Positions 1,345-52,445 of a DNA stretch of 64,000 bases are shown in pieces. Source of the DNA: Eledone cirrhosa (Eukaryota); NCBI GenBank assembly GCA_964016885.1, contig OZ024741.1, forward strand, positions 189,286,001-189,350,000. The letters run 5' to 3'. Made by a program: the position numbers and the translations under genes. The notes beneath the pieces are model-generated. The model was not told where the DNA came from. It searched no databases and was given only the letters and a program-made list of their open reading frames with translations. Position 1 is the first letter of the stretch. Every line of letters begins with the position of its first letter.

Positions 1345-1822
1345 TTAATGAAAGGTATGAATTACAGAAAAAAATCCCCACACAATATGTGAATGGACAC
1401 AGAAATATGGGATTGCTGTTACGAGCTCCCAGATTATAGTTTTACTTCAAATGACAAAAGAAGTATATGAAAAAGCATTTTTGTCCATAAGATGTGGGTG
1501 CTCTTATTGCTGAACCTACTGTAAAAATGTTTTCAGTGAATTTTAGTGATCCCTAAAAGTATATAATGTATGGTGGGGGAGCAGATATGTGGGGTGTTTT
1601 GAGTTGACTTACCTAGCGGGTTCTCATGTGTGTGGGTGCATAACCTGAGAATGTTTTTCATGTTTTATATCATGAGTTAATTATTGAGTACTTTATAATG
1701 TGTTTATACTTATTTCGTGTTTTATCAAATCTATTTGTCATTTGTAAATGGTCCTTGTCTCTATTCTCATTTTAATTAACTTTGTCCTTCAGAACATGTA
1801 CTGTAATCCCTATCATTTCCTT

Positions 1823-1907
1823 CATCATTTCCTTTTACATCCACTTTTCCCTGCTTGCAAGGGTGGGACAGGAACTGATTCTGGCTTGATTTCTACAGCT
1901 GGATCCC
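1823..1907 (-). mobile_element. SINE/RTE 3' tail fragment
   Basis: Matches the tail of the SINE at 46211-46557. Confidence 0.7.
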
Positions 1908-1920
1908 TACGTTTATAATA

Positions 1921-4160
1921 TTTGCTATGCAACTGGCAACAGAACGGGAGAATTCCCAGCTCTGTGAGCCGAGGAGCGGTGGCGCTGCTGAAAAAGGATC
2001 CGAACAAGGGGGTTAACATAGATAATTTCAGGCCCATAACTCTTCTAAACACAGAGTTCAAGATTTTGGCCAAGGTGCTAGCAAAGAGGTTGGCGCTTGT
2101 CGTTGGTGGTCTGGTGTAAGAGGCGCAAACATGTGCCATTCCTGACAGATCCATCCATGACAACCTCCACCTCATGCGATACATCGTGGAGCGGGTAGCT
2201 AGGGAACCTGGCACGGGTGGGTCCTTGATCAATTTAGATCAGTCAAAAGCTTTCGATAGGGTCGACCATCGTTATCTGGCGGCAGTCATGAGGGTGGCTG
2301 GCTTTGGGCCCATCTTCAGAGGCTGGATCACTGCCATGCACAGCGACATCTGCTCTGTGGTGAGAGTGAACGGTCACCTTTTGGAACCGTTCAACATCAT
2401 ACGCTCGGTCCGCCAAGGATGTCCCCTCTCGTCCCTCAAGCCATTACTGCACAAACTGGGGATGTTGAGGGGGCTCCCGCGCGAACTAGGATGCGGGAGA
2501 TCCGTGTCAGCATATGCGGACGATGTCACCGTAGTGGTGTCGAACGCCAAACACATCGAGGCAATCGGCACTACACTAAGAGAATACGAAGCGGTGACAG
2601 GAGCAATGATCAACCAGGAAAAGTCGGTGGGCCTGCAGCTCGGCACCTGGAGAGGCAGGTCCATGCCGTCCAACGACATCGTCGGGCGCTGGACGGACAG
2701 ACCACTTAAATTGTTAGGGGTCTGGTTCGGTCCGGACCTCCAGACGGACAAAAACTGGGACGAGGTGACGAGCAGGGTGGCTTCTCTCACCCAGAAATGG
2801 GCAGAGAGGAAGCTATCCCTGAAAGGTCGAGCGGAGGTGGCTAACACGTACATCGCATCCATCATCTACTACCGCCTGACTGTCGTGCCTTGTCCTAAGC
2901 CTCGCCTGACTGCGCTGGAGCGTTTGCTCTTTCGCTTTTTGTGGAAGGGATGCGCTCCGATGGTTAGGTGGTCCATCTGCTGTCAACACCCGCTACATGG
3001 AGGGCTGGGCATGCCATGGCTAATGATGCGCAGACACGCGCTCAGGCTATGACATCTCCACCTCTTCCTCGACGGTGATCAGGTGTGGTTGCCGTTTGCT
3101 AGATGCGTCTTTCCCAAGCTCATCTCCTTGACGGAGCTGCAGTCCTGGGTCAAGCAAAGACCAAGAGGGAGCGCTTGGAGACTGGAATGTCTTCAGGTGC
3201 TCACAGCACTCGACCAATCGGGCAATGTGATCGGTAGAAACTCCACATTGGCGTTCTATAGAGGATTAGTGAAGGGGAAGAGCGACGACGTACTTGGGGA
3301 AACTAGGCGTCGACGAAAATCAACTAGCCAATCTCTTTGGAGGAACTTTCGGGCCGGGGCCTATGGACAACTTCCAGAAATCCTTGGCCTGGCAGTGCTA
3401 CCAAGGAGCTTTGCCAGTTCGGGATAAACTCTACAGGCATGGAGGTGCCGTCAGCCGGACATGTCCGAGATGCGTGCAGGGCGACGAAACCGTCCTGTAT
3501 GCACTCATCCAGTGTCCGAGTATTGCTGACTTGTGGGTTTATGTCGAACACCTGCTGTTGCGTGTAGAATGGATCCGACTATCAGCTGAGTCCATCGTGA
3601 GGATTGCCCCGCCCTCTTCCTTTAGCCAGGAAGAGCAGGCAGTTTTTATCTGTCTGGTGGCATGGCGAAAGAGATAGTATTGTGGACGCGTCTGAAAGGG
3701 TTGAAGACGAGCACTTACCTCTTCAGTGATGTCCTGATTAACTTTTTCCAATTTCATTTGAAAAGGAAAATCAGGGTAGAGAGGGAGGTGCTCCCTTCCC
3801 AGCTTTTTGTTGAAAGATGGGTGAGAGAAGCAAGTATGGCCCGAGTGAGTGGACCTACTCTGAGTATATGCCTGTAAATTGAAGGTAGAAAACTGGGAGA
3901 GGACAATTGCCCTGATGGTCGGGGTCACCGTGGCTTTTTTAATGGGCTTTCTCCTTGATGGCCCTCGGAGGTCTCCCCCCATTGGGAAATTTTTTCATCG
4001 TTCTATTATTATATCCTCTGTTTTTTTTTGTTTTTTACACGCAGAAATGCCCATTTGTACCGTCCTGTATTGTCCTGTACTGTCCTTAATGTCTACTTTG
4101 TGTAAACCCTTGTGGTTAATAAAGAAAGCATTATTATAATCTTCATCATCATTATTATTA
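1921..4160 (+). mobile_element. 5'-truncated L1/Tx1-clade LINE (RT, zf-RVT-like C-terminus, 3'UTR, (TTA)n tail), inactivated
   Basis: NFRPITLLNTEFKILAK, LDQSKAFDRV, VRQGCPLS, AYADD, CPRC..ETV..ALIQCP; stops at 2117 and 3050 plus frameshifts. Confidence 0.9.
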
Positions 4161-5209: not shown

Positions 5210-7190
5210 GTTTTGCAAGGTTTTTGATATGATATCGTGTGTCGAAACAAATATTGTTATACTTGGGGCGGGTCATATTGTTGTAATAATATTGCCAGAA
5301 TTAATAACAGAACACACTCACTGTTTGGTTGGTTTTCGCTTCTGTATCTTTTATCTTTTATATCAGTTAATTCATTCGGTCCTCAATGTGTACCATTGAC
5401 TGACCAACGGTCAAAAAATACAGATATAATATAGATATAAACACATATATATAGTCTAACAAAGTTCTTTCGTTGCACATCTACAACACGTCAGTGGTGC
5501 TATTATGTTCCCCCTGTTGTATTGTATATCTATGCCATCATTATTTAATGTTTATTTATTTATTTATTTTTGTCTTCTTCTCTGTGCATGCGTTTGCATG
5601 TGTGTATAGTGTTTGGTGTGAGTTCGCGTTTGGGTGACTGTGTTTTGGTTATTGTATTCTATCTTAGTTTACTAGTGTGTGTTTATATGTGTTTGTTGTT
5701 ATTGTGCTTGTGTATATATTTATTTATTTATTTATTTATTTATTTATATTTCTCTTAAGTCGGTATTGTTTGTTTGGGTGTTGTTATTCCATTCATTTTT
5801 TTCTGTTTAGCTTTGGCCTTCTAAGCTCTATTTCACTTGCTTCTCTGATTTGCCTATCTGCTGGGTCATTTCTATGTTTAGATATTATTTTAATTTCTAT
5901 GTTGTCTATGTTACCGTCATGTTGTTGTCTGGCGTGTTCGTATAGTACTGAACCGTTTTTTCATCCTTTTAGTTCCCCTCAGTGTTGTTCTATCCTTTCA
6001 CCTATGCTACGAGCTGTCTTGGATATGTATGTTGTTGTCATGTTTCTGCGAGTACCCTCTGTACATCTTATGCTATAGACGTTTCTAGTTTTACAGTTTA
6101 GCCGGGGGTTTACTTTACATATAATACATTTCCTATTAGTACAGTCAGTTTTCTTAAAAAAGTAGGTTTTGCTGATCAGGGATTTATGGTAGTTCTTGGC
6201 TTTTCTACCACCTTAATCTTTAAGTGGGTCTTTCGCAGGGTCTTTGTACACTGGTTAGCTAATTTCCCTCCAGGGGTAGCATCCATGAACATGACGCTCT
6301 GGTATCTCTGGTTGTCGTACCATGAGGTGGCTTTCCCTATCTTATGTTTAGTCCTATCTAAGCTATTCCATGATTTGCTCCTGTATAATGGGCAAATTCC
6401 TTTCATGTCCAGTTCTATGAGGGTCTTATACTTCTCTGTGGCTCCTTCGTATACTCTGATTCTGTCTCTTTGATTGTAGCCAGAGAACTGCATGCGGTTG
6501 ATGAAGTCTTGGATGTGTCTTTCCATTTCTGTTGGATAGCACATGCGGGACACGTTCTTCATCACTCGTACCAAGTCTGCGATCAGAATATTAAACTTAG
6601 CACTACTGGACATTGCTGAGTTTTTGGTTATCAGGTATTTGGAGTCCATGGGTTTAGCGTAGTGTGAGTGCAGAATTTGGGCCCTCTCGTCTATAGTGTT
6701 AATCCAGAGTTCCATGTCTAATACAGGTAGTCTACTGTTAGGGTGTTTGGAAGGGTAGTCGATAGTTACAGTTATACTCTGGTGTATGGAATTAGCTATC
6801 TGCTGGATGCTTTCCATTGTGCTACATTCTAAATCATACTTGTTAGTACTCTATTTGTGGGGGTGTCCTTATTACTATATTAATGTCGTCTACATAACAA
6901 GAGTACATGATGAGGTCTATGGAGCTCTCATCAAGGAGATCTTTGAGTCTCCTTTCCCACCATACCATAAAAAGGTTGGCAACATCACCAACTATGCTGA
7001 TGCCAATGGCTGCTCCCTCATTTTGGGTGTAGATCTTCTCATTGAATTTGAATATGTGGCCCTTTAGGGTAGTTTTAATATTAGCCCCTATTGCATGCGC
7101 GACCATTTTTCTTACCTGATCATTGTTTTTATCATTGGGATAAGAGGCTCTGCTAAAGTACTGGCTGGTCTGTGATGACATGTCCAACCC
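5210..7190 (-). mobile_element. Decayed Penelope-like element (RT C-terminus plus GIY-YIG endonuclease)
   Basis: ORFs 6843-7187 (YTQNEGAAIG, YVDD) and 6176-6817 (LPVLDM, HYAKPM); 5770-6090 on - reads NVYSIRC..TYISKTARSIGERIEQH..RQIREA..LNRKNEW; (TA)n on both sides. Confidence 0.85.
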
Positions 7191-20008: not shown

Positions 20009-20116
20009 AAATGGCTTCTACAGGACTAGAACTGTTTTATTCGAAGGAAATCATCAGGAAAGCTTTCCTGATGATTTCCTTTGAATGAAACAGTTCTAGT
20101 CCTGTAGAAGCCATTT
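20009..20116. repeat. Loopless palindrome, 54-bp arms, centred on AAGCTT
   Basis: Arms are reverse-complementary with 2 mismatches. Confidence 0.95.
20062..20111 (+). ncRNA. Type I hammerhead ribozyme motif
   Basis: gctttc-CTGATGA-stem II (ttc/gaa)-GAAA-cag..ctg-TA-gaagc. Confidence 0.7.
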
Positions 20117-20198
20117 CTATATTAAACATATTCTGCTATGTATTGAGTACTTTACTTACTGTGGTCGACCACGATTGAACCCAGGTTTCACTCACACG

Positions 20199-43241: not shown

Positions 43242-43314
43242 GTAAGTTTCAAATGTCTGCAGCATTTTCTTATTTATTAAATAGATGTTAAATAGTGGTG
43301 ATAATGATAACAGT

Positions 43315-45783
43315 GGTGGTGATGGTAGTGGTGGCCATGCTGGTGATGGTAGTGGTGGCCATGCTGGTGGTGATGGTAGTGGTGGCCATGCTGGTGGTGA
43401 TGGTAGTGGTGGCCATGCTGGTGATGGTAGTGGTGGCCATGCTGGTGATGGTAGTGGTGGCCATGCTGCTGGTGATGGTAGTGGTGGCCATGTTGGTGGT
43501 GGTAGAGGTGGCCATGCTGGTGGTGGTAGTGGTGGCCATGCTGGTGGTGGTAGTGGTGGCCATGCTGGTGATGGTAGTGGTGGCCATGCTGGTGATGGTA
43601 GTGGTGGCCATGCTGGTGGTGATGGTAGTGGTGGCCATGTTGGTGGTGGTAGAGGTGGCCATGCTGGTGGTGGTAGTGGTGGCCATGCTGGTGGTGGTAG
43701 TGGTGGCCATGCTGGTGATGGTAGTGGTGGCCATGCTGGTGGTGGTAGTGGTGGCCATGCTGGTGGTGGTAGTGGTGGCCATGCTGGTGGTGATGGTAGT
43801 GGTGGCCATGCTGGTGGTGATGGTAGTGGTGGCCATGCTGGTGGTGGTGGTAGTGGTGGCCATGCTGGTGGTGGTGGTAGTGGTGGCCATGCTGGTGGTG
43901 GTGGTAGTGGTGGCCATGCTGGTGATGGTAGTGGTGGCCATGCTGGTGATGGTAGTGGTGGCCATGCTGGTGGTGGTAGTGGTGGCCATGCTGGTGATGG
44001 TAGTGGTGGCCATGCTGGTGGTGGTAGTGGTGGCCATGCTGGTGGTGGTAGTGGTGGCCATGCTGGTGATGGTAGTGGTGGCCATGCTGGTGATGGTAGT
44101 GGTGGCCATGCTGGTGGTGATGGTAGTGGTGGCCATGCTGGTGGTGGTAGTGGTGGCCATGCTGGTGGTGGTAGTGGTGGCCATGCTGGTGGTGATGGTA
44201 GTGGTGGCCATGCTGGTGGTGATGGTAGTGGTGGCCATGCTGGTGGTGGTGGTAGTGGTGGCCATGCTGGTGGTGGTGGTAGTGGTGGCCATGCTGGTGG
44301 TGGTGGTAGTGGTGGCCATGCTGGTGATGGTAGTGGTGGCCATGCTGGTGATGGTAGTGGTGGCCATGCTGGTGGTGATGGTAGTGGTGGCCATGCTGGT
44401 GGTGATGGTAGTGGTGGCCATGCTGCTGGTGATGGTAGTGGTGGCCATGCTGGTGGTGGTAGTGGTGGCCATGCTGGTGGTGGTAGTGGTGGTCATGCTG
44501 GTGATGGTAGTGGTGGCCATGCTGGTGGTGGTGGTAGTGGTGGCCATGCTGGTGGTGATGGTAGTGGTGGCCATGCTGGTGGTGATGGTAGTGGTGGCCA
44601 TGCTGCTGGTGATGGTAGTGGTGGCCATGCTGGTGGTGGTAGTGGTGGCCATGCTGGTGGTGGTAGTGGTGGTCATGCTGGTGATGGTAGTGGTGGCCAT
44701 GCTGGTGGTGATGGTAGTGGTGGCCATGCTGGTGGTGGTAGTGGTGGCCATGCTGGTGGTGGTAGTGGTGGCCATGCTGGTGGTGATGGTAGTGGTGGCC
44801 ATGCTGGTGATGGTAGTGGTGGCCATGCTGGTGGTGATGGTAGTGGTGGCCATGCTGGTGGTGGTAGTGGTGGCCATGCTGGTGGTGATGGTAGTGGTGG
44901 CCATGCTGGTGATGGTAGTGGTGGCCATGCTGGTGGTGATGGTAGTGGTGGCCATGCTGGTGGTGGTAGTGGTGGTCATGCTGGTGATGGTAGTGGTGGC
45001 CATGCTGGTGATGGTAGTGGTGGCCATGCTGGTGGTGGTAGTGGTGGTCATGCTGGTGATGGTAGTGGTGGCCATGCTGGTGGTGATGGTAGTGGTGGCC
45101 ATGCTGGTGGTGGTAGTGGTGGCCATGCTGGTGGTGATGGTAGTGGTGGCCATGCTGGTGATGGTAGTGGTGGCCATGCTGGTGATGGTAGTGGTGGCCA
45201 TGCTGGTGATGGTAGTGGTGGCCATGCTGGTGGTGATGGTAGTGGTGGCCATGCTGGTGGTGGTAGTGGTGGCCATGCTGGTGGTGGTGGTAGTGGTGGC
45301 CATGCTGGTGATGGTAGTGGTGGCCATGCTGGTGATGGTAGTGGTGGCCATGCTGGTGGTGATGGTAGTGGTGGCCATGCTGGTGATGGTAGTGGTGGCC
45401 ATGCTGGTGATGGTAGTGGTGGCCATGCTGGTGATGGTAGTGGTGGCCATGTTGGTGATGGTAGTGGTGGCCATGCTGGTGGTGGTAGTGGTGGCCATGC
45501 TGGTGATGGTAGTGGTGGCCATGCTGGTGATGGTAGTGGTGGCCATGCTGGTGATGGTAGTGGTGGCCATGCTGGTGGTGATGGTAGTGGTGGCCATGCT
45601 GGTGGTGATGGTAGTGGTGGCCATGCTGGTGATGGTAGTGGTGGCCATGCTGGTGATGGTAGTAGTGGTGGCCATGCTGGTGATGGTAGTGGTGGTCATG
45701 CTGGTGGTGATGGTAGTGGTGGCCATGCTGGTGATGGTAGTGGTGGCCATGGTGGTGGTGGTAGTGGTGGCCATGCTGGTGGT
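43315..45783. repeat. Intronic minisatellite, ~100 units of 24/27 bp (catgctggt[ggt]gatggtagtggtggc)
   Basis: Seen directly; unit lengths vary only in whole triplets. Confidence 0.97.
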
Positions 45784-46210
45784 GAAAATGACAGCCACAG
45801 CCGCTACCATACTGCTCTTCGCCACCACTGCAACTGTTGTGGTGTAGAGGGGTATGTTATGGTGGAGGTGGATATGTTATGGTGGAACAATGTATGTCAG
45901 TCTCCAGTAGGCAGACAATGATGTTATGAACAAAAGTCAGCTGGGAGTTTCTGTCAAAGTCGATTACATATTTCACAGAAGGATAAAATGAATGAATAAA
46001 TGCATGAATGAATGAATGATGAGAATAGAATTAAGAATGTATGGATGGTGTCTTTGTTATTTTTTTATAGTTCAGTTTAGTTTAGATTTTAGTTGTTGTT
46101 GTTGTTGTTGTAATACAGTTACAAATATTGATGTGAAAGTGAGTGCATAGTGTGTCATCATTTGTAAATGATATATATATATATGTATATATGTATATAT
46201 GTATATATAT

Positions 46211-50331: not shown

Positions 50332-52082
50332 ATCATCATCATCATCATCAACGTTTAACGTCCGTGTTCCACGCTTGCATGGGTTTGGACGGGGGTAGTC
50401 CCACTTGAGGCAAGAGTGATTGTCTTGCTCGCATAGGACTGTCTGGCAGGTTTTCTACAGTTGGATGCCCTTCCTAACACCAACCACATTTACAGTGTGG
50501 GTCTGGGAGGTTTTTACCGTGTTGCCTACACGGCCACATTACAGCGTGGACTGTGTGTTTTTTTGTCGTGACACCTACACGATCTCATTTGTTTCGGCCT
50601 CGATGGCGCGGCACCAACATAACTTTACATAGAACGGGGTGGTGTGGTTCGGGTGGGGGTGGGGGTGGTGGGACGGGGTGTATTTTGTTAGAGATGCCTA
50701 CTGGCTGGAGTAGGTTTTACTATATATTTAGGTAAGGCGGGTCTTCTCTGTTACTGAGTACCGCCAAAGGTCTCGGTCCAGTGACATTGTCTTGGAGAGG
50801 TGTAAGTGTGTGATGTCGGAGTTTATCAGCTCGTCCCAGGTTTTTCTAGGTCTGCCTATTCCGTGACTACCGTCTATCTTTATTGCCCTGCACTTTGTTA
50901 TACAGCTATCGACTTTCATGCGCATCACGTGTCCATACCAACGTAGCCTTCTCTCGAGTAAACAACATCTGATCCCTCTTATCTCTAATTTATTCCTTAG
51001 TTCGTTTATGCTTTGCCGTTCACGTATATTACTGTTACACATCCAGCGGAGCATGCAAGCTTCGTTCCTCTCTAGTCTGCGTATATCCTCTGCACACAAT
51101 GCCCAGGTCTCACTGCCATGCAGCATTGCTGTTCGTATGCAGGCATCGTACAACCTGCCTTTCATTTTTAGTGAGAACCCTTTAGCAGCTAATAGTGGTA
51201 TAAGCTCTCTGAACTTTTTCCAACCAGTTCTGACTCTAGCTACAGTACTTTCAGAGCACCCTCCCCCACTGCTGATTTTATCGCCCAGGTAACGGAAGCT
51301 GTCCACTATTTCTATAGAACCCTCTGCGCAATTGAAAGAGCTAGTAGTTTGTGGGCACTTGCTGCTACTTATTGCACCAGAGCACCGGCCACATGTAAAA
51401 TCTATGTTCTTAGTTAGCTTACCTGTGATCCCACTACATCTTTTATGCACCCATACTTTGCATTTAGGACATAAAATGGAGTTTCTACCTACGCCTTTCC
51501 TACACACCGAGCACGACCATTTCCCAGAAGGGACCGCCGCCTTGTTTTCTTTCCTACAAACTAGTACTTTGGTCTTAGCCAGGTTAATTTTAAGTCCTTT
51601 TGACTCTAGGCCGTGCTTCCATGTTTGGAATTTCTTCTCTAGCTCGGCCATTGATTCCGCTATGAGTGTCAGGTCGTCTGCGTATAGGAGTTCCCATGGG
51701 CAGCCTGTCTTGAACTCCTCTGTTATAGCCTGAAGGGCAATAATAAATAGTAGTGGACTGAGAACAGAGCCCTGATGGACGCCGACTTTTACGCTAAACT
51801 CTTCACTATATTCGTTGTTAATTCTAACCTTGCTGACTGTTTCTTTATACATGGCTTGTATAGCCCTCACAAGCCATTCGTCAACGCCTAGTTTTCTAAG
51901 AGCCCACCAGATAATGGAGCGGGGGACTCTGTCGAAGGCTTTCTCCAAGTCGACAAAAGCTAAGTAGAGGGGTTTACCTTTAGCTAGGTACTTCTCCTGT
52001 AGTTGTCGTACTATGAAAAGAGCGTCTGTGGTACTTTTGCCTGACACAAACCCGAACTGCATTTCATCTAGGTCAATTCTCT

Positions 52083-52085
<3 letters not shown>
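50332..52085 (-). mobile_element. RTE family B, 5'-truncated, open RT frame
   Basis: 444-aa ORF MQFGF..LYADD..TEKTRLT*. Confidence 0.95.
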
Positions 52086-52146
<61 letters not shown>

Positions 52147-52221
52147 GGAGGAAATATGGTAAGGAACCAGGTGGACCATAATGCACCAAAGTACTCAATA
52201 CTTAGGGTAGTAGAGTGGGTA

Positions 52222-52346
52222 ATAGGAACGAGTAGGACCCCGACGGCTGAGCTCAAGCCGTTTCGACGGCTAATTCTGGACTAAAAGTCAGTCCAGAATT
52301 AGCCGTCGAAATGGCTTGAGCTCAGCCGTCGGGTCCTACTCGTTCC

Positions 52347-52349
<3 letters not shown>
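52222..52349. repeat. GC-rich inverted repeat (~60-bp arms, 7-nt loop) between (TA)n tracts, carrying the 3' half of a hammerhead
   Basis: 52222-52282 vs 52290-52349; GAAA-(c/t)ggc..gccg-TC. Confidence 0.9.

Positions 52350-52445
<96 letters not shown>

Follow-up and report, generated by a model that had tools for sequence, protein, structure and literature searches.

Short palindromic insertions of a Hydra-clade Penelope-like element in Eledone cirrhosa as a possible record of capped RNA ends and joined cDNA pairs

The EN+ Penelope-like elements (PLEs) of the Hydra clade are characterized, in the accessible text of Craig et al. (2021, PMC8557442), by a reverse transcriptase (RT) followed by a C-terminal endonuclease. 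Section 11 of that paper lists an RWK-like motif, a change of DKG to DKT, a CxCx5C linker, the absence of CCHH, a CxxC plus CxH arrangement and (TA)n targets, and a type I hammerhead at the 3′ end, an inverted 5′-truncated copy and a one-sided tail are also described. How inverted PLE insertions are formed and whether the hammerhead cuts in vivo are stated to be open questions, both in section 15 of that paper and in the available text on PAc, the Poseidon element of Anolis carolinensis analyzed in vitro (Frangieh et al. 2024, PMC11167929). The PAc protein, a predicted dimer, nicks and extends both strands, starting reverse transcription at two internal sites, and the stretch between these two sites defines the tail. 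Inverted copies are left unexplained in the parts of that work at hand. For Penelope of Adineta vaga, the available sections of Arkhipova et al. (2013, PMC3846280) report head-to-head pseudo-LTRs with a junction palindrome and an Inr-like sequence in the pseudo-LTR, as found here. The A. vaga junctions were read as self-priming on an antisense template, whereas the junction letters described below point to two sense-templated cDNAs. In Drosophila, transcription of Penelope begins within the upstream pseudo-LTR (PMC2377424).

The element type, inverted shape, truncated copy and one-sided tail are thus already known for PLEs. In L1 twin priming, two cDNAs copy adjacent parts of the RNA. Unlike in L1, both cDNAs would copy the same stretch in the element analyzed here, which yields a perfect palindrome; priming at both ends and an extra G marking run-off at the cap are common to the two (PMC11702581 and PMC3287187, in the portions available). 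With the Cercyon PLEs of Schistosoma, as far as the accessible text of Cervera and de la Pena (2014, PMC4209133) goes, our element shares the covariation of a U3-A8 core and a palindromic loop III, but it has a full 5-bp helix III, a long stem II and one large subfamily with a C3/A8 mismatch. Relative to the Hydra-clade PLEs presented in the available parts of PMC8557442, it has a unit of approximately 3.54 kb rather than mostly less than 3 kb, a tail of 79 nt rather than 30 to 40, and a U3-A8 or C3/A8 core with a long stem II rather than the canonical cores of File S2. Most copies end in a single 13-nt window, unlike those described there, and a 16-mer of the hairpin family was absent from the accessible supplement of that paper. 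Our literature search, which left most subscription papers and bioRxiv supplements outside its scope, found no evidence of twin cDNAs, cap run-off or hammerhead cut sites for PLEs.

The hairpin under study lies in a 64,000-nt stretch of the Eledone cirrhosa genome, hereafter the window. It is an inverted repeat at 52222-52349, with arms at 52222-52282 and 52290-52349 and a 7-nt spacer at 52283-52289, and its features are as follows.

52085 to 52142, no strand: (TA)n target microsatellite, left flank, evident from the sequence
52143 to 52221, minus strand: one-sided PLE tail of 79 nt, assigned by the one-tail rule and by analogy with PAc
52222 to 52285, minus strand: tailed arm, the 3′ end of the element, reaching 10 nt past AATT (92% match to the long copy L111)
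within the tailed arm, minus strand: stem I 3′ strand 52238-52241, GTC 52242-52244, stem III 52244-52260, GAAA 52261-52264, then the stem II 3′ strand
52286 to 52289, plus strand: junction insert AGTC, directly repeating the four bases with which the right arm opens, evident from the sequence
52290 to 52349, plus strand: tail-less arm, from the A of TTAGTC (52290) to TTCCTA, evident from the sequence
52297 to 52334, plus strand: 3′ half of a type I hammerhead, assigned from intact relatives
within the hammerhead half, plus strand: stem II 3′ strand 52297-52307, GAAA 52308-52311, stem III with palindromic loop 52312-52328, GTC 52328-52330, stem I 3′ strand 52331-52334
52350 to 52374, no strand: (TA)n target microsatellite, right flank, evident from the sequence

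The center of the hairpin is an 18-bp stem, gacggctaattctggact (52265-52282) and agtccagaattagccgtc (52290-52307), and its longest exact inverted match is 22 nt, compared with a maximum of 14 in 300 shuffles. Directly 3′ of this stem come the GAAA, another stem, whose loop TGAGCTCA (52317-52324) is palindromic, and the GTC. This order, noted in an initial sequence-only reading, was confirmed by the coordinates (52265-52330). Two of its details were corrected: stem III opens with tggc on the plus strand (cggc belongs to the opposite arm), and GTC is followed by a run of three rather than four G's. Loci L001, L002, L005, L012, L013 and L029 also have three G's at the predicted cut site on the tail-less arm and four on the tailed arm; these loci were picked for their likeness to the window copy, and the pattern may reflect that bias or homopolymer slippage.

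In this copy, the start of the tail-less arm at 52290 would correspond to a capped transcription start (+1), its TTCCTA end to a second reverse-transcription start site, and the end of the 79-nt tail to the first one. The AGTC insert probably arose from a slip at the end of the template. The cut site is predicted after 52330. Core positions 3-9 and the 5′ strand of stem I were absent from both arms; with the 5′ half of the hammerhead missing from the hairpin, there is no complete ribozyme at this copy. An Rfam search at gathering threshold gave no match anywhere in the window.

Other features were observed in the window. A TA run at 20011-20198 holds a hairpin of a second family, whose hammerhead is canonical (CTGATGA) and whose tail contains the shared motif GTATTGAGTACTTT. 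One apex pattern of this family has 244 matches; in these, the arms come to a sharp stop some 6 nt short of the core, and additional C's, possibly templated, are frequent there. A 451-aa open stretch at 50731-52083 (minus strand), which we take to be a LINE-type reverse transcriptase, starts right at the TA run that holds the hairpin. Another stretch, of 224 aa, at 6179-6850 (minus strand) has LPVLD and YAKPM motifs, by which it presumably resembles another Penelope-like RT. A long G-rich tandem repeat of short units, with several frames open, occupies 43242-45918.

The hairpin is the 3′ end of a Hydra-clade PLE, present as a short end-piece. Family counts rest on exact-pattern matches and are therefore lower bounds. 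A pattern spanning the apex, with 0 to 30 nt between the arms, detected at least 11,197 tailed hairpins, so that the locus is not the one-off snapshot it had first been taken for; 37,994 exact matches were obtained with a 19-mer from the arm, and the 203-bp hairpin unit gave 2,030 candidates in this 3.0-Gb genome. The top 30 copies were all within TA runs and had varied apices, and exactly one tail was present in 103 of 105 hairpins taken in genome order. Apices differ from copy to copy, and arm ends are confined to a 13-nt window. Both arms of a locus derive from the same source or template: they differ by 1.4 per 49 nt, compared with 3.2 between loci (105 hairpins without gaps, out of 127). 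The very high copy number, the constant overall shape and some recurring apices might be accounted for by wholesale copying of a non-autonomous element from a single master hairpin or a few of them. As apices vary even inside subfamilies whose members are near-identical, and particular apices are shared between different subfamilies, we consider this very unlikely.

Non-inverted copies run upstream into a long 3′ region and then into an ORF on the hammerhead strand. In L111 this is a 710-aa open frame (1773-3902, hammerhead strand) encoding an RT and then a C-terminal GIY-YIG-type endonuclease. Pfam gave no match on this ORF, and the domains were thus assigned by motif. RWR, SDKTG (DKT) and CNCPDRSIC (the CxCx5C linker) are present, the endonuclease part has VIYQ..AYIG without the Cys pair or His (no CCHH), and CxxC and CxH surround a conserved E and N (CNLC..E..N..CKH). 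There are 403 homologues over the whole length of the frame, nearly all without a name. Judged by these motifs against the published description cited above (PMC8557442), the element belongs to the Hydra-clade PLEs. Its insertions display Hydra-type traits, with a (TA)n target, tandem pseudo-LTRs, an inverted truncated copy and a one-sided tail.

Tandem junctions, with the tail leading on to the 5′ region and an ATG, numbered 342. At L373, L374/375, L377 and L379, copies start at or near the arm-end window, extend 63-820 nt beyond the tail into the 5′ region and the ORF, and then repeat from the start window. Since hairpin-type starts extend past the tail toward the ORF, the short template would be the 5′ end of an RNA reading into the ORF. 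No full-length copy starting at the inferred +1 was found among 30 tandem junctions examined, and 16 of the 30 kept the whole upstream hammerhead; long copies therefore need another template, such as read-through, multimeric or circular RNA. At L402:369-1459 (minus strand) and L403:286-966, a unit that begins at the start window, includes the tail and extends a further 114-820 nt is repeated in tandem, which suggests template jumps from the 5′ end of the RNA to an internal point. At L382-L385 (G000:C1:91476608-91487256), there are four tandem junctions spaced by 3.54 kb, all with a complete hammerhead upstream; such an array would be the product expected of a circular or multimeric template.

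We examined the hammerhead in intact relatives. Intact arms have, in order, ACCCC, the core, a G, CTCGGCTATT, approximately 35 nt, AATTAGCCGTC, GAAA, stem III, GTC and GGGGT, and the core (TTGANAA or CTGAGAA) is some 55 nt upstream of the stem. Among 68 intact arms, the cores were TTGAGAA in 34, CTGAGAA in 21, TTGATAA in 6 and others in 7; a rarer TTGANGA core is also present, and position 7 varies (G, T, A or C). No canonical CTGANGA core was present among the first 100 of the 5,016 intact cores. In 14 subfamily representatives, 92.6% of cells were paired in a type I fold with three helices around core positions 3-9, GAAA and NUH, compared with 27-52% when the fold was slid along the sequence. 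The hammerhead was the minimum-energy fold in one of three sequences tested. With sequences 89% identical, there were no two-sided pair changes in the 14 representatives, and stability z-scores of −0.2 to −1.2 were no better than those of shuffles. Conservation is lowest for the distal stem II hairpin, in which 79.5% of cells were paired. By this comparison, the intact relatives carry a type I hammerhead with a U3-A8 core or a C3/A8 mismatch and are predicted to self-cleave after GUC. U3-A8 is a known variant of PLE hammerheads (PMC4209133, available part).

These relatives also bear on the initial proposal that the 18-bp stem is stem II of the hammerhead, on which the cDNA snapped back before copying itself. 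Non-inverted relatives build stem II from CTCGGCTATT and AATTAGCCGTC, approximately 35 nt apart; the 18-bp stem exists because the arm was duplicated by inversion. The 5′ half of the hammerhead was indeed replaced by the inverted copy; the relatives' cores are TTGANAA or CTGAGAA. A search for CTGANGA within 25 nt of GACGGCTAATT gave 26 matches; of 20 that were read, 7 were in an unrelated repeat and 13 were decayed arms of the family, and the intact relatives have no CTGANGA beside the stem. The apex does fall between the two strands of stem II, and 173 copies are joined at stem III homology, as a snap-back might leave them. These joins occur in both orientations, however, with the loop on the tailed arm in 94 and on the tail-less arm in 79. 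The predicted product, keeping the full loop with the 5′ strand of stem II joined to GTCGAAAC, was found in 0-1 copies genome-wide (one doubtful match, L231), the loop being deleted rather than kept. A snap-back on stem II thus appears extremely unlikely. The sequence-only reading saw a true hammerhead half and was largely right in its observation, as well as in placing the origin of the inversion in reverse transcription, but its mechanism was wrong.

We then analyzed where the arms stop. Arm ends span 0-13 nt. Their mode, accounting for 64 of 206 arms, is the A of TTAGTC, 6-7 nt upstream of AATT, and a second group lies at TCATTT, 10-11 nt upstream of AATT. Both sites resemble what we take to be the TCAKTY initiator (Inr) consensus; by eye, no convincing match to the consensus of a downstream promoter element was found. 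A match 14 nt further upstream was present in only 4,661 of the 37,994 arms, part of this drop being loss from the longer exact pattern. Thirty copies anchored on the tail alone were classified by eye: the end fell within the 0-12 window in 15, at the G run that follows GTC in 4 and at other places in 6, and 5 extended beyond the core. Long arms have long partners (25 inverted pairs in the first 100 entries, hand count), indicating that the stop is a property of the template and not of each RT on its own.

We propose that a short insertion arose when the two ends of a cut in (TA)n each primed a cDNA, and these two cDNAs, having reached the capped 5′ end of the RNA and run off it, were joined head-to-head. 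From the sequence evidence, we give this a probability of approximately 0.7. The endonuclease would cut both strands within (TA)n. Transcription would start inside the pseudo-LTR at TTA(+1)GTC, with a minor start at TCA(+1)TTT, between the two strands of hammerhead stem II; the 5′ half of the hammerhead would be missing because the template RNA never contained it. One RT would start at the tail end and the other at TTCCTA, copying approximately 135 and 60 nt, respectively, and each would run off the capped end and add a C opposite the cap. The 3′ ends of both cDNAs would then join blunt or by pairing of 1-2 nt, and this head-to-head join would complete the insertion without separate second-strand priming. 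Nicking and extension of both strands from two start sites has a counterpart in PAc in vitro (PMC11167929, accessible text). The observed parts of this scheme are the family, the ORF with RT and GIY-YIG-type endonuclease, the one-sided tail, the 13-nt arm-end window, the symmetry and the junction letters. The 13-nt spread of the arm ends, the window copy, whose junction has no cap-type G, and the tailed arm being more often the longer one count against run-off at a cap.

The junction letters were tallied by hand from the first listed entries (start of contig C1, and for the cut-site class also C2 and C3). There are 521 hairpins in which each arm ends at the A of TTAGTC; in the first 50, the inserts were C in 13, G in 10, CG in 2, CAG in 7 and CTG in 4, giving C, G, CG or C[A/T]G in 36 of 50 joins. 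The others had no insert (9), GG (1) or A/T only (4), and GC or GNC was not seen (0). Copying of the cap is credited with one extra C on the cDNA, which shows up as an additional 5′ G (PMC3287187 and PMC11702581, available parts). The C, G, CG and CNG inserts at +1 would thus be the mark expected from cap copying, and the CG and C[A/T]G inserts mean that a C was present on both cDNAs. The base before +1 is T, not C, in the subfamilies of all 13 CG/CNG loci and of all but approximately 6 of the rest of the 36 C, G, CG and CNG loci. As long copies of those subfamilies have T before the A, the inserted C is not templated. At a control position 3 nt downstream of +1, empty joins and C, G or CG inserts were found in 0 of 50. 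Single-base inserts were C/G in 23 and A/T in 3 at +1, as opposed to A/T in 20 and C/G in 3 at the cut site (first 100 of 305; Fisher p=9e-8). An extra C or G was nevertheless present at approximately 11 of 100 cut-site joins, and hence C addition is not strictly cap-bound. Long A/T runs are found at the apex of L007, L011, L163 and L251, where the arm ends in template TTT, which suggests reiterative slippage at the RNA end.

The two cDNAs might have been joined head-to-head after being stopped by a roadblock on a long RNA, either a protein bound there or the hairpin of distal stem II. The 3′ strand of the predicted distal hairpin overlaps with the stop window, a shared block would also couple both arms, and the lack of full-length copies starting at the stop window among the 30 tandem junctions is in keeping with such a block. 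However, the distal hairpin is the helix with the poorest conservation, and the RT traverses three stronger helices before reaching it. A stall, moreover, gives no reason to expect C[A/T]G and CG inserts at a single position but not 3 nt downstream. We therefore regard the roadblock as unlikely and favor run-off of two cDNAs at a capped end.

Fold-back of a tailed cDNA can produce only hairpins in which the tailed arm is the longer, so that those with a longer tail-less arm cannot arise in this manner. Among the 103 one-tailed hairpins, the tailed arm was longer in 53 and the tail-less arm in 33 (33 of 86 unequal ones; p=0.04), and 17 were equal. Mirror patterns searched genome-wide gave 1,412 tailed-longer and 1,137 tail-less-longer copies (55:45), and long pairs gave 11 and 8 (19 pairs, 2 of 21 being left out as complex). 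The mild excess of longer tailed arms (p=0.04) is the sole result leaning towards fold-back. A single cDNA folded back, or sealed as a hairpin, near the 5′ end of the RNA, with the loop later flipped, would be close to the self-priming proposed for A. vaga (PMC3846280, available sections). It could explain this excess, the subfamily variants shared by the arms and the 1-nt microhomology at 31 of 103 joins. Flipping would be required in approximately 40-45% of copies, however, including some with kilobase spacers between arms of approximately 150 bp, and if the joins were intramolecular, a 1-nt loop would be needed in 38 of 50 short ones (first 50 of 751, hand count). With the tail placed on the left, CAG occurred 5 times and CTG 6 times, which also speaks against a single cDNA, and we consider that origin quite unlikely. 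Perfectly palindromic spacers, found in 13 of 103 hairpins, likewise favor two cDNAs.

In a separate class of 305 mini-palindromes, both arms end at the G run after GTC, the predicted hammerhead cut site. For PAc, in contrast, no RNA reads ended at the hammerhead site, according to the accessible text (PMC11167929). The TCCTAC subfamily has C3/A8 in 21 of 29 intact arms, and the TCTTAC subfamily has U3-A8 in 30 of 30. TCCTAC accounts for 45% of tailed arms (6,556 of 14,487) and 46% of stem III joins (80 of 173, hand count). Its share fell to 22% of cut-site copies (67 of 305; p=6e-8 relative to stem III joins), in a comparison between subfamilies that differ at other sites too and perhaps in age. 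The depletion of the core-mismatched subfamily among cut-site copies suggests that hammerheads with the U3-A8 core cleave in vivo.

The short palindromes may represent a genome-scale fossil record of the PLE cycle, a reading to which we give slightly better than even odds. They would record a capped start to single bases, two independently primed cDNAs joined at their 3′ ends without a second-strand step, and in vivo self-cleavage by the hammerhead, with the core mismatch as a natural control. If this is true, the junction letters in thousands of copies answer both questions on PLEs, the formation of inverted insertions and in vivo hammerhead cutting, from DNA alone, and they provide base-exact predictions for the +1 site, the two priming sites and the cut site. 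The junction count can be applied to any PLE-rich genome. It would also explain how a ribozyme-bearing element gave rise to more than 11,000 perfect 60-bp palindromes that resemble a separate non-autonomous family.
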